Notes under the pieces: model-generated | The model's database searches: none | Told to the model about the DNA's origin: nothing | What the model saw: only the letters and a program-made list of their open reading frames with translations | Made by a program: the position numbers and the translations under genes | Shown here: positions 18,782-23,376 of the stretch, piece by piece | Layout: every line of letters begins with the position of its first letter | Numbering within the stretch: the first letter of the stretch is position 1 | NCBI GenBank assembly: GCA_963789115.1 | Contig: CAWBJH010000001.1 | Coordinates: 72,816 to 136,815, forward strand | Length of the DNA: 64,000 bases | Direction of reading: 5' to 3' | Source: an uncultured delta proteobacterium | Lineage (GTDB): Bacteria; Desulfobacterota; Binatia; Binatales; Binataceae

Positions 18782-18871
18782 GTTGATTGGATGCTCCAGT
18801 GGGGGTAAAGTCGTTTTCAATTACAGCGAGAATGGGAGGTAACGAGGTAGCCAAATAGCAATGTAACGGAG

Positions 18872-19045
18872 AGTAGCGCCAGGACTCACAATCGTGAGTT
18901 GACGAGGTGGAAGCTTATCGAACAATTCGGCGGATGGCTTCCCGGTTCCACGATCGTTAGAGGCGGACAAAACCTGCGGGCGACCGCGCGACAACAACCG
19001 TCTCAAGTGGGCGTAGCAAATCGCTCCGCTACGACCTTCTAAACT
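18872..19045 (+). ncRNA. glmS_ribozyme: glmS ribozyme (GlcN6P-dependent self-cleaving riboswitch). The predicted cleavage site is between A18875 and G18876
   Basis: AGCGCCAGGACU(P1: CACAAUCGUGAG)UUGACGAGGUGGAAGCUUAUCGAACAAUUCGGCGGAUGGCUUCCCGGUU matches the glmS ribozyme core. It is immediately 5' of glmS and the local GC is lower. Confidence 0.85.
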
Positions 19046-19165
19046 CTCCCATCAGGCCGGTCAAAACTCAGCTCGGCAACACGAGACAAGGTCGACGTTT
19101 GCCGGGCTCTCCAGCAGTGCGCTGCGCGGAGAATGTATGCATCGCGGAGAAGGAGAGCACGAAAC

Positions 19166-20998
19166 ATGTGCGGAATAGTTGGTTACATCGGATGGGAAGA
19201 GGCTTGCCCAATTCTGCTCAATGGGCTGCAGAAGCTCGAATATCGCGGTTACGACTCGGCCGGAATCGCGACCGTGACGGACAACGGCAAGATGGAGGTC
19301 CGGCGCGCCGCGGGAAAGCTCGGAGAGCTGCGCAGGCGGTTGGAGGAGTCGCCGCTGGCGGGCAAAATCGGCATCGGGCACACGCGATGGGCCACGCACG
19401 GCCGCCCCTCCGAGGAAAACGCGCATCCGCACAAGGCGGGCCCGGTCGCCGTGATTCACAACGGAATTGTCGAGAACTTCGTCGACCTGCGCGCCGCCCT
19501 GCTCAAACGCAACCACAAGCTGCGCTCCGAGACCGACACCGAGCTGATCGCCCATCTTATCGAAGAGCGCCTAAGGGAGGGCCTGGGGCTCACCGAGGCG
19601 GTGCGGATGGCGGTGCGCGAGCTGCGCGGCTCGTTTTCGATCGTGGTGCTGTGCGAGACCGAGCCCGACAAGCTGGTCGCGGCCAAGACCGCCACGCCCC
19701 TGGTGATCGGCTTCGGCAAGGGCGAGAACTTCGTCGCTTCCGATATCCCGGCGCTGCTGGAGCATACCCGGCGCGCGATGGTGCTCGAAGACGGCGAGAT
19801 CGCGGAGGTCAGCGCCAAGGCGGTGCGCCTGATGAGCTTCGACGGCACCCCGGTAGCGCGCGCCCCCCGCACTATCGAATGGGACGCAGTCGCGGCGACC
19901 AAGGCCGGCTTCCAGCATTATCTGCGCAAGGAGATCAGCGAGCAGCCACAGGCCTGGATCGACACGATGGCGGGGCGGGCCAGCGCCGGCTCGGCGGCGG
20001 TGACCTTTGAGGACGAGGTGCTGCCGCCGGGCGGTCCCGAGGCGATCGGGCGGATAGTGTTCGTCGCGGCGGGCGCCTCCTACATCACCTCGCTGATCGG
20101 CAAGTACATAATCGAGGAGCTGAGCGGGATTCCGGTCGAGGTCGACTATTCGCACGAGTTCCGCTACCGCCAGCCCACGATCGACCGGCGCACGACGGTG
20201 ATCGCCGTATCGCAGTCGGGCGAGACCGCCGACACGCTGGCAGCGATGGAAGAGAGCAGGCGGCGCGGGAGCCATCTGATCGCGGTGACCAACACGGTTG
20301 ACTCGTCGATCGCGCGCAAAGCCGACGCCCGGATCTACACGCGATGCGGCCCGGAGATCAGCGTCACCACCACAAAGTGCTTCCTGACCCAGATCGAGGC
20401 CTACTACCTTCTTGCGATACACCTGGCGGCCCGGATGGGTAGGCTTTCGGAAGGCGAAGGCGAAGCGATACTGAAACCGGCCTTTGCCATTCCGGCGCAG
20501 ATCGAAACCGTGCTGGGACTGGAGGATCAGATCAAGGCGATCGCGCACAAGTACTTCAACGCACGCGACTTCTTGTACCTGGGACGCGGAATCAACTTTC
20601 CGGTCGCGCTTGAGGGCGCGCTCAAGCTCAAGGAGATTTCCTACATCCACGCCGAGGGCTACTCGGCGGGAGAGATGAAGCACGGGCCGATCGCGCTGAT
20701 CGACGAGTCGATGCCGGTTGTGGTGATAATCCCGCACGACAACGTGTTCGAGAAGACGCTGTCAAACCTGAAGGAAGTCGAGTCGCGCAAAGGCAGGATA
20801 ATTGCGCTTACCGATCGGTCGAGCGCCGAGTTGAAGAGCGTTGCGCAAGACATCATAGAGGTTCCCGCCACCCATCGGATGCTGACGCCGGTGCTGATGA
20901 CGGTGCCGCTCCAACTGCTCGCCTATCACATCGCAGTGCTGCGCGGCACCGACGTCGATCAGCCGCGCAACCTCGCCAAGTCGGTGACGGTGGAGTAG
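19166..20998 (+). CDS. glmS: Glutamine--fructose-6-phosphate aminotransferase
   Basis: Start MCGIVGY with catalytic Cys2, after an AGGAGAG RBS. SIS domains and the C-terminal ...VAKSVTVE are present. Confidence 0.95.
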   Translation: MCGIVGYIGWEEACPILLNGLQKLEYRGYDSAGIATVTDNGKMEVRRAAGKLGELRRRLEESPLAGKIGIGHTRWATHGRPSEENAHPHKAGPVAVIHNGIVENFVDLRAALLKRNHKLRSETDTELIAHLIEERLREGLGLTEAVRMAVRELRGSFSIVVLCETEPDKLVAAKTATPLVIGFGKGENFVASDIPALLEHTRRAMVLEDGEIAEVSAKAVRLMSFDGTPVARAPRTIEWDAVAATKAGFQHYLRKEISEQPQAWIDTMAGRASAGSAAVTFEDEVLPPGGPEAIGRIVFVAAGASYITSLIGKYIIEELSGIPVEVDYSHEFRYRQPTIDRRTTVIAVSQSGETADTLAAMEESRRRGSHLIAVTNTVDSSIARKADARIYTRCGPEISVTTTKCFLTQIEAYYLLAIHLAARMGRLSEGEGEAILKPAFAIPAQIETVLGLEDQIKAIAHKYFNARDFLYLGRGINFPVALEGALKLKEISYIHAEGYSAGEMKHGPIALIDESMPVVVIIPHDNVFEKTLSNLKEVESRKGRIIALTDRSSAELKSVAQDIIEVPATHRMLTPVLMTVPLQLLAYHIAVLRGTDVDQPRNLAKSVTVE

Positions 20999-21039
20999 GG
21001 CGCGCGCAGCGGCTGCGCGCCGCGGTGCGGGCAATCGGC

Positions 21040-22901
21040 ATAGGGGGTAGCGGCGGACCGCTACTCCCCTGCCACACCACCGGACATGCGGGTCCGCATC
21101 CGGCGGTTCGGAAGGTTGAGGTTAATCGGCAAGGCGAGGAACTCCGAGTCGGTCGTAGTAGCGGATGGTGAGTCCGGTCTGGACCAGCTTGGCAGCGCGA
21201 TACCACCAGCGCCGTCCGGTGACAGCGGCCTCGGCCGCCGCGACGTGAGGCAGTCCGAGTCTACGCAGCTCGGTGTAGATTTTGGGGCCACGCTTCCACT
21301 GCTTGAGTTGCAGCGCACGCAGACGATGGCGAATCCACTTGTCGTGGTCAGCGAAGGCTCCCGGTGTATCCGCCAGTTGGAAGTACTGCTTCCATCCCGG
21401 CAGATAGCTCCGTAGCTCCGCCACCACCGTGCGCAGACTTCGCCCGCCGCTGCGCCGGGTAATCTGGCGCACCCGTTGCCTGAGCATCGCGGTGGCCTTG
21501 GGAGCGACGCGGCGCATGACCGCACCGCCCTTGCCGTACCAGAAGCTGAAGCCAAGCAAGCTCCGCTTCGATACCGGCGCCACCGCGCTCTTTTCGCGGT
21601 TGACTCGTAGCCGGAGCCGCGCGTACAGACGCTCCAGCGCCGTCATTACCCGCTCGCCCGCGCGCTTGGACCGCACGTACACATTGCAGTCGTCGGCATA
21701 GCGGACGAAGGCATGGCCGCGCTTCTCCAACTCCTTGTCGACCTCGTCGAGCAGCAGATTGGCCAGCAGCGGTGACAGTGGTCCGCCCTGCGGCGTCCCC
21801 TCCAGGCGCTCCACCACTACCCCGTTGGCCATCATGCCGGCCTTGAGGTAGCGGCGGATTAATCGCAGCAGGCGGCTGTCGCCGACTCTTCTCGCCAGCC
21901 TTCCCATCAGCACATCGTGATTGACGCGGTCGAAGAATTTCTCCAAGTCCACGTCCACCACCCAGCGCCGGCCTTCCCTGACGTAGCGCTGCGCGGATAA
22001 AACCGCGTCGTGGGCGCTGCGCCCCGGTCGAAAGCCGAAGCTGTGCTCCGAGAAGCTGGGGTCGAATAGCGGCTGCAGCACCTGCAGGATGGCCTGTTGG
22101 ATAAGCCGGTCGAGCACGCACGGGATGCCCAGTTCGCGCATCCCGCCGCCCGACTTGGGAATCTCCTGCCGCCGCACCGGTTTCGGCTGGTAGGTGCCGC
22201 CCAGCAGTTGCTCGCGCACCCCTGACCAGCGCTCCATCAAGCATTGCGGCAGTTCTTCCACTGTCATCCCATCGACCCCGGGGCTGCCCCGGTTCTCCCG
22301 CACCCGCGCCAACGCCGCCTTGACGTTGCCGCGCGCGACCACCTGCTCCATCAGGTGGTCGTCTCCCGAGCGCACCTTCCCGTTCGTCATCGTCGGCGCT
22401 TCGCCACTTCGCCCAGCCCTCGGAGCTTCACTCCTGGGCTTGAACGCAAGTTCCGCTTGCGCGGAGTTCCGGCGCCTGGCGCGGTTCGGACTCACGATGG
22501 TTTCGCTCTCCCTTCCGTTCGGCCCTTCACCAACTCGGCTTTCAAGGCCCTGCCCTCTCCGGCTGGCTACTACGGCCTCGGCTGACTTCTCGCGCCGCCT
22601 TATGGCGTCACCCTTCCAGGCGCAGGGCGAGATCTCCCCAGGTAAGACTCCGTGACCTTCCCCGCACAACCGCCGGATCTACGCAGTGGCTCCTTGGCCG
22701 CGAGGGCTTCGCGGTCTTTTGCCCGCTCGCCCTGAGCCACCGCGCCTTGTATCCGATTCCTGTTCGTCGGCTCGCGGGTTTGCTCCACGCTTCTTTCAGC
22801 GATTGCCTCGCGGCTCATCGCCTTGCGCTTCGCTAGTGCTCGCTGCGGTCTGCTCACACAGGGGACTTTCACCTCACAAGTCACGCGTCGTGCTGGGCAC
22901 A
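21040..22901 (-). mobile_element. Bacterial class C (IIC) group II intron, about 1.86 kb, with boundaries approximate at the 3' end
   Basis: The 5' GUGUG lies directly after the U-tract of a rho-independent terminator. The RT/maturase ORF is internal. Domain V- and VI-like hairpins lie downstream of the ORF at about 21030-21095. Confidence 0.75.
21122..22390 (-). CDS. Group II intron reverse transcriptase/maturase, about 422 aa, with no endonuclease domain
   Basis: RT motifs including YADD and a C-terminal X/maturase region. The start is set to MTNGKVRS. The upstream part of the long ORF covers intron RNA domains I-III. Confidence 0.85.
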   Translation of the reverse strand: MTNGKVRSGDDHLMEQVVARGNVKAALARVRENRGSPGVDGMTVEELPQCLMERWSGVREQLLGGTYQPKPVRRQEIPKSGGGMRELGIPCVLDRLIQQAILQVLQPLFDPSFSEHSFGFRPGRSAHDAVLSAQRYVREGRRWVVDVDLEKFFDRVNHDVLMGRLARRVGDSRLLRLIRRYLKAGMMANGVVVERLEGTPQGGPLSPLLANLLLDEVDKELEKRGHAFVRYADDCNVYVRSKRAGERVMTALERLYARLRLRVNREKSAVAPVSKRSLLGFSFWYGKGGAVMRRVAPKATAMLRQRVRQITRRSGGRSLRTVVAELRSYLPGWKQYFQLADTPGAFADHDKWIRHRLRALQLKQWKRGPKIYTELRRLGLPHVAAAEAAVTGRRWWYRAAKLVQTGLTIRYYDRLGVPRLAD

Positions 22902-22940
22902 CAAAAACGGGCGGGCGGCGGATTCTTCCGCCGCGCGCCC
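22902..22940 (-). terminator. Rho-independent terminator of the lipoprotein gene, which is also the IIC intron target hairpin
   Basis: GGGCGCGCGGCGG-aagaauc-CCGCCGCCCGCCC followed by UUUUUG, then the intron 5' GUGUG. Confidence 0.7.
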
Positions 22941-23016
22941 GAGACTGGATTTCCGCTGCAGCTCCGGCAACTGGACGCGCCCTCCGGCCTTGAGGGCTTG
23001 ATCGCCCTACCTTTTC

Positions 23017-23376
23017 CTACCGGAGGTTCTGCTTGGGGACGAAGCCCTGGTAACCTTTGAAGGGCCCTTCGAGCAATTCGACGCGAGCGCCCACTGAATC
23101 TCTCGCGATTATCCTGACCCGCGTCGCCTGCTCCGCGTCTTTGGACTCCCCGCCGCGCACCATCCCGTCCAGCATCGACACGAAGCTCCTCTGGCCATCG
23201 GTCATCGGGCCTTTCATCGCCCTTCGAATGTCAAGCGCGGCCTTGTAGATTTCCTCGTTCTGATAGACTTTGACCGTATGCTCGTCCCTGCCGGCAACTA
23301 ATCGATGGCTGCATCCGCATGCGCCAAGCGCGATTACGAGAACGGCCACACTGAGACCAAACTTGCGAAAACCCAT
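23017..23376 (-). CDS. Small lipoprotein, hypothetical
   Basis: MGFRKFGLSVAVLVIALGACGC lipobox, 119 aa. Confidence 0.6.
   Translation of the reverse strand: MGFRKFGLSVAVLVIALGACGCSHRLVAGRDEHTVKVYQNEEIYKAALDIRRAMKGPMTDGQRSFVSMLDGMVRGGESKDAEQATRVRIIARDSVGARVELLEGPFKGYQGFVPKQNLR

Follow-up and report, generated by a model that had tools for sequence, protein, structure and literature searches.

The DNA analysed here, below called the window, is a 64,000-nucleotide (nt) stretch of contig CAWBJH010000001.1 (assembly GCA_963789115.1). It comes from a Candidatus Binataceae genome and carries on its minus strand, from position 22902 to 21034, what we regard with a probability of about 0.95 as an intact bacterial class C (IIC) group II intron retroelement. 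The intron is 1869 nt long and runs from GUGUG to GCCGAU. It lies in the same orientation as the gene whose rho-independent terminator immediately precedes it, is located outside open reading frames (ORFs), and interrupts neither this lipoprotein-like gene nor the convergent gene glmS. An earlier note on this DNA had proposed a terminator-targeted class IIC element at this place. This proposal is borne out by the two known copies, which both lie at terminators, and by IIC signatures in the RNA as well as in the protein. The three checks that the note itself had set, on the protein class, on domain V and on the empty site, all came out in its favour. The intron is inserted precisely and, judging from the sequence comparisons presented below, has apparently been mobile recently. 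The coordinates of the features discussed are collected in Table 1.

Extent of the intron, second copy and empty site

A 9-kb contig of assembly GCA_049279895.1 (locus L001) encodes a protein 100% identical to the 422-amino acid (aa) protein of the window. The genes surrounding this second copy, which include MazE/PemK and an outer-membrane efflux protein, are unrelated to those in the window. When the two loci were aligned, identity extended from the T-run just before GTGTG to GCCGAT, corresponding to window positions 22902 and 21034. No differences were detected over the 1869-nt element, every BLAST mismatch being located outside of it. A 28-nt similarity beyond the 3' end was considered and rejected, as it is a gapped extension of low identity produced by BLAST in GC-rich DNA; the identity ends at GCCGAT. 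The second copy is preceded by a hairpin and six T residues (GGCGGCCC-CGACT-GGGCCGCC-TTTTTT). In L001 (4661-5241) the intron copy is found ~800 nt downstream of the MazE/PemK toxin-antitoxin pair, beside two small hypothetical genes, and the terminator ahead of it appears to belong to a 137-aa ORF (L001 5592-6005).

Another contig of GCA_049279895.1 (JBAPPA010000516; L083) contains the window's lipoprotein gene, the terminator and nt 1-68 of the intron, where the contig ends. A Logan contig (L084) has the same content and breaks at the same point. Since L083 and L001 belong to one assembly, the intron is present at least twice in GCA_049279895.1, namely next to glmS and at the L001 site. BLASTN revealed no further copy in the rest of the 64-kb window. 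That the copies at two different sites are alike over the whole element, without a difference detected, and encode identical proteins suggests that transposition was very recent.

Homologues of the upstream 119-aa protein led us to an empty site, present on a related metagenome contig of 988 bp in the European Nucleotide Archive (ENA), ERZ27251294 k141_1669339 (L082). This contig encodes a lipoprotein 84% identical to that of the window and, on the opposite strand, the 3' end of glmS. With a slash marking the junction, its intergenic region reads ...CCGCCCGTTTTT/TGCCCGCACCGCGG... (in longer form ...CCGCCCGTTTTT/TGCCCGCACCGCGGCG...). The two flanks of the window are therefore joined exactly in L082, position 22903 being fused to position 21033. 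The predicted ligated-exon junction of the window is ...GCCCGCCCGUUUUU/UGCCCGCACCGCGG..., or ...CCCGUUUUU/UGCCCGC... in its RNA form. Since a second copy and an empty site both define them, the boundaries are not a matter of chance. Consequently, the 3' end, which the earlier note had placed near position 21040, is at 21034. The short distance to glmS that it described stands, with 35 nt between the intron 3' end and the stop codon (20996-20998).

Comparison of L082 (748-860) with the window (23016-22903, minus strand) showed conservation of the entire 3' exon and, in the 5' exon, of its last 12 nt. In its 5' half, the terminator region could not be aligned; the hairpin of L082 is longer, imperfect, and closed by GGGCGG/CCGCCC. 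Exact-pattern scans of Joint Genome Institute (JGI) metagenome contigs gave no matches, either with the junction predicted for the empty site or with the glmS end combined with the hairpin.

The terminator and the 5' exon target

The terminator hairpin starts 75 nt past the end of the lipoprotein-like gene. Its GC-rich 14-bp stem (22941-22908) is composed of 6 bp, a C-C mismatch and 8 bp, and is capped by an AGAA loop. Five U residues follow (22907-22903), and this U-tract meets GUGUG at position 22902 with a spacer of 0 nt. Thus, a terminator followed by GUGUG is present as previously described, except that the stem is not perfect and that the 1-2 nt gap does not exist. The last 50 nt of the 5' exon fold with ~-30 kcal/mol according to RNAfold. 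A simple terminator scan did not flag this minus-strand terminator, as the C-C mismatch leaves the T-run too distant from the uninterrupted stem; folding reveals it clearly.

In both copies, and in most of the relatives analysed below, a terminator-type stem-loop occupies the position of intron-binding site 2 (IBS2). The final four bases of the 5' exon, UUUU (22906-22903), constitute intron-binding site 1 (IBS1) and are complementary to AAAA (22720-22717), exon-binding site 1 (EBS1), giving a pairing of 3-4 bp.

Target sites of related introns

Scanning GTDB genomes yielded 80 loci (L002-L081) encoding proteins 60-82% identical to that of the window. Their hosts are Myxococcota-like, Gemmatimonadota, Longimicrobiales, Acidobacteriota, Binatia and others. 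The 5' end of the intron could be placed for 42 distinct flanks, which are not phylogenetically independent (many represent one multi-copy Longimicrobiales intron), each of them being however a separate insertion site; 820 50-mers taken from the same loci served as controls. The 50 nt upstream of the introns fold with a mean of -25.3 kcal/mol, versus -13.9 kcal/mol for the controls (Mann-Whitney p ~8e-19), and the last 8 nt contain a mean of 4.0 T residues versus 1.4. A simple terminator definition applied to 33 of the 42 flanks, versus 41 of the 820 controls (5%).

For the EBS1-IBS1 pairing, 42 distinct flank-plus-intron sequences from related introns were analysed. Each of the last three bases of the exon is paired with its loop base in 38/42, 42/42 and 41/42 cases, with 20, 8 and 16 double changes, respectively; CAC/GUG, ACG/CGU, UUC/GAA and GCA/UGC are examples of covarying partners. 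None of 500 shuffles reached the observed covariation, and sliding the partner by 1-3 columns decreased pairing from 91.7% to 30-51%. Position -4 pairs in just 19 of the 42 sequences. The target rule for these introns is hence a stem-loop followed by 3-4 nt complementary to EBS1.

Longimicrobiales metagenome-assembled genomes (MAGs; L013-L031, L035, L059 and L060) contain one related IIC intron in many copies per genome, with at least five loci in isolate 15054db9 and four in d8bee37e. The 5' end of this intron is GUGGGCCCGG, its EBS1 is CAC and its IBS1 is GUG. At the sites L017, L018, L023, L025, L026 and L027 there is no obvious hairpin plus T-tract, which suggests a looser choice of target during a burst of expansion.

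The ribozyme RNA

The RNA of the intron was recognised by three Rfam models. RF02001 (group-II-D1D4-3) matched over its full length and RF01998 (group-II-D1D4-1) matched the domain II/III region, with scores (Table 1) above their respective gathering scores of 32 and 35. The third model, RF00029 (D5-D6), matched positions 21108-21034 with 36.6 bits (E 4.9e-5, regional search). In the RF00029 alignment CGC is located opposite the consensus AGC, the G-U wobble is retained, and the distal stem-loop lacks four columns of the model. The consensus structure folded from 30 distinct relatives agrees with these results: the CGC triad, as part of a CCGC segment, is invariant, and the domain V pairs 16/35, 18/33 and 20/29, together with most domain VI pairs, are compensatory (13 pairs in total). 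The domain V hairpin recognised in the earlier note is therefore correct, and it folds with the IIC-specific triad and wobble.

The domain VI hairpin of that note corresponds to the distal part of a longer domain that spans positions 21074-21036. This domain contains a bulged UA that is invariant in the fold of the 30 relatives, and whose A at position 21041 is a candidate branch point, its distance of 7 nt from the 3' splice site being the usual one. In all, the non-coding RNA amounts to ~500-600 nt, of which 407-512 nt, depending on the start codon, precede the ORF and 88 nt follow it.

The intron-encoded protein and its start codon

The ORF at 22390..21122 encodes 422 aa and contains the YADD motif. 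The NCBI gene call starts at ATG 22390, and NCBI already labels the protein as a group II intron reverse transcriptase (RT)/maturase. It matches the Pfam families RVT_1 (3.6e-40) and GIIM (1.3e-17), and NCBIfam TIGR04416 'group II intron reverse transcriptase/maturase' with 404.6 bits (cut-off 300). No endonuclease domain was present among the Pfam and NCBIfam profile matches of the ORF, and the protein ends ~45 residues past the maturase domain. These results agree with what had been read from the sequence before, namely a 422-aa RT/maturase with YADD and an X domain but no endonuclease, encoded ~510 nt downstream of the intron 5' end.

Among proteins of solved structure, the closest relative is the GsI-IIC RT (PDB 6ar1; class IIC), which aligns over its full length (E 1.5e-133). 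It is followed by the E. rectale ribonucleoprotein (RNP) (7uim, IIC; E 3e-95) and the R.i. and E.r. RT domains (5hhj and 5hhl, both IIC; E 1.8e-81 and 3.1e-80), and at a larger distance by LtrA (IIA; E 1.7e-38) and T.el4h (IIB; E 1.2e-35). Thus, the best solved relatives are all IIC, with an E-value ~95 or more orders of magnitude better than for the IIA and IIB enzymes, a class placement that is based on solved IIC, IIA and IIB enzymes.

ATG 22390 is probably not the start of the protein. In the relatives, the codon aligned to this ATG is mostly GCG. Exactly 35 codons upstream, 39 of 65 distinct relatives have GTG, ATG or TTG, and in several more such a codon is offset by one. This upstream start is preceded in the relatives by a conserved ribosome-binding site of the GGAGAG type, and GTG 22495 of the window by GGGAGAG. 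In 62 of 64 distinct relatives no stop codon interrupts these 35 codons, versus ~40% expected according to our estimate for random sequence of 65% GC. In addition, the database gene calls of many relatives correspond to 457 aa. The upstream start is favoured by its conserved codon, by the ribosome-binding site ahead of it and by the open frame, and we conclude that the true start is probably GTG 22495, which gives a 457-aa protein starting 407 nt into the intron.

The consensus of the extension (22391-22495; L002-L081) is roughly V/M-S-L-..-Q-.-ELPLEGRGEAP...RSGEA. Codon-position variability of the extension gave no informative signal in an ungapped comparison, in which insertions and deletions blur the result. 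Judging from these alignments, the proteins of a soil and sediment sub-lineage of IIC introns appear to carry a conserved N-terminal extension of ~35-45 residues that is absent from GsI-IIC. The extension might have a function, for instance as an extra contact to the RNA or DNA stem-loop or as a site of translational autoregulation, instead of being a passive leader; we hold this idea to be rather doubtful.

Neighbouring genes

The intron and glmS are convergent. Between the glmS stop codon and the intron (21000-21030) there is a GC hairpin, GCGCGCAG-CGG-CTGCGCGC, without a T-run, so glmS lacks a hairpin plus T-tract ahead of the intron. The nearest terminator-like site on the plus strand (22993-23008; AGGGCTTGATCGCCCT then ACCTTTTCCT) is located beyond the intron, and hence the intron may be transcribed in antisense by read-through from glmS. 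It is conceivable, as a weaker possibility, that such read-through dampens expression of the intron.

Directly upstream of glmS, at 18864-19014 on the plus strand, we found a full-length glmS ribozyme (RF00234; 84.3 bits, gathering score 37). The glmS ribozyme is best known from Gram-positive lineages. Its occurrence in a Binataceae-type genome may merit a note on its distribution.

Table 1. Features of the intron and its surroundings, in positions of the window
Feature	Position	Strand	Evidence or remarks
Complete group IIC intron	21034..22902	-	Identity with L001 copy, L082 empty site, Rfam matches
Rho-independent terminator of upstream lipoprotein-like gene, 5' exon stem-loop target	22903..22941	-	Sequence, RNAfold
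IBS1 (UUUU), final four 5' exon bases, in terminator U-tract	22903..22906	-	Complementary to EBS1 AAAA; -1 to -3 covary with EBS1
Domain I core (RF02001)	22647..22817	-	121.6 bits
11-nt bulge ACGAACAGGAA with AGGAA (epsilon' region, domain I)	22757..22767	-	Fills 11 unpaired RF02001 positions
EBS1 (AAAA) in hairpin loop GCAAAAGA	22717..22720 (intron 183-186)	-	Covaries with last 3 exon bases
Domain II/III region (RF01998)	22522..22605	-	41 bits
RT/maturase in domain IV	21122..22495	-	Probable start GTG 22495 (457 aa); TAA 21124-21122
Domain V, 32 nt	21076..21107	-	CGC triad 21105-21103, G-U wobble, 2-nt bulge, short distal stem, GACC loop
Domain VI	21036..21074	-	RNAfold; consensus fold with many compensatory changes
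3' exon first base (U), presumed IBS3	21033	-	Junction from L001 and L082; relatives mostly T or C
Upstream 119-aa lipoprotein-like hypothetical protein WA005_17550	23017..23376	-	Signal peptide, LGAC lipobox-like motif; conserved in relatives
glmS, convergent with intron	19133..20998	+	NCBIfam NF001484, TIGR01135

Discussion

The assignment of the element as an intact IIC intron has to be weighed against several observations that do not favour it. The RF00029 score lies slightly under the gathering score of 40, as would be expected since the shortened domain V of IIC introns would fit this general model less well. The loop of domain V is GACC and not a GNRA tetraloop. For the absence of EBS2 there is no more than an implication, from the match to RF02001, a model of the IIC type, over its full length, and EBS3 was not located. 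The junction is ambiguous by 1 nt, a T being present on either side, and only the canonical termini, GUGYG at the start and AY at the end, decide between the two readings. The region contains no promoter-like site that a scan could detect, and therefore expression of the intron depends on read-through. Finally, splicing is predicted and mobility is deduced from the existence of two copies.

The last two points bear on the alternative that survives best, namely that the element is IIC by descent but is now an immobile or non-splicing relic fixed at the glmS site. With an intact and strong terminator ahead of the intron, a low level of transcription is expected. A relic would however not be expected to look as this element does: its ORF is undamaged and encodes YADD and every domain; none of the catalytic RNA elements is disrupted, and they agree with the family consensus; the copies at two different sites are indistinguishable over 1869 nt and in the protein they encode; and an empty site persists in a relative. 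We therefore consider this alternative unlikely.

A second alternative is that the element belongs to another class without an endonuclease (A, D, E, F or IIB-like) and that its position beside a terminator is fortuitous. An endonuclease domain is also missing from several bacterial classes, our comparison covered solved enzymes of classes IIC, IIA and IIB, and the score of the D5-D6 match lends this view some room. Nevertheless, the element has the features that Toor et al. (2006; PMC1702495) described for IIC introns: a CGC triad in domain V, whose distal stem is 2 bp shorter than in IIA and IIB introns, an 11-nt AGGAA bulge in the epsilon' region of domain I, and an EBS1-IBS1 pairing of 3-4 bp with a terminator stem-loop at the position of IBS2. 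The closest solved proteins are all IIC, and the association with terminators, which both copies and 33 of 42 relatives show, is far above the 5% of the controls. Membership of another class was thus rejected as very improbable. The same applies, even more so, to an intron of the IIC-attC type, a known IIC sub-lineage that also targets stem-loop DNA (PMC3001079), but in integron attC sites instead of terminators: here, the target is a hairpin plus U-tract located 75 nt past a chromosomal gene and in the orientation of this gene, no integron features were present among the called genes near L001 or the examined ORFs beside the intron in the window, and the relatives are mostly located behind hairpin-plus-T-tract sites.

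A terminator-targeting IIC intron would be expected to act as follows, the individual steps being taken from established IIC biology (Toor 2006, PMC1702495) and not from this sequence, which directly provides the anatomy, the precise insertion, the two or more copies and the target rule. A precursor RNA would arise by read-through of the terminator. The protein would bind the intron RNA and promote its splicing, which would proceed either through hydrolysis or through branching at A21041. The resulting RNP would then recognise a terminator-type DNA stem-loop together with 3-4 bases through EBS1-IBS1 and one base through EBS3-IBS3, and reverse-splice into the target DNA, which is probably single-stranded. 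Because the protein has no endonuclease, synthesis of complementary DNA would be primed by the nascent strand at a replication fork. Insertion behind terminators would avoid the disruption of genes. Work by Robart, Seo and Zimmerly in 2007 is said to be a further source for this mechanism.

The intron is an ordinary textbook IIC intron, of a kind that is already well known, in a Binatota-type MAG, that is, in a poorly studied phylum. Its import beyond annotation is small and it does not challenge current understanding. It is however a good worked example, as it combines an occupied site, an empty site, a second copy, and clear EBS1-IBS1 covariation with terminator targeting. In addition, GC-rich IIC RTs without an endonuclease could be of practical interest as GsI-IIC-like enzymes.

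With the introns B.h.I1 of Bacillus halodurans and O.i.I1 of Oceanobacillus iheyensis, the intron described here shares the CGC triad, the short domain V, the AGGAA bulge, the EBS1-IBS1 pairing of 3-4 bp and the terminator stem-loop (PMC1702495). It differs from them by the GACC loop of domain V and by a long, GC-rich distal extension of domain VI; besides, B.h.I1 and O.i.I1 have been characterised biochemically and structurally, whereas the present intron is described from its sequence. The IIC RNP of Eubacterium rectale (7uim) and the R.i. and E.r. RT domains (5hhj and 5hhl), the next-best protein matches, are more distant than GsI-IIC and come from gut Firmicutes. The closest known system is GsI-IIC of Geobacillus stearothermophilus, to which the protein can be aligned along the full length (residues 13-404 to residues 3-392 of GsI-IIC) and with which it shares the architecture of an RT, an X/thumb domain and a short C-terminal DNA-binding region, without an endonuclease. 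The host of GsI-IIC belongs to the Bacillota, whereas the intron described here resides in the GC-rich genome of a Binatota-type MAG, and its protein probably has an N-terminal extension of ~45 residues relative to GsI-IIC.

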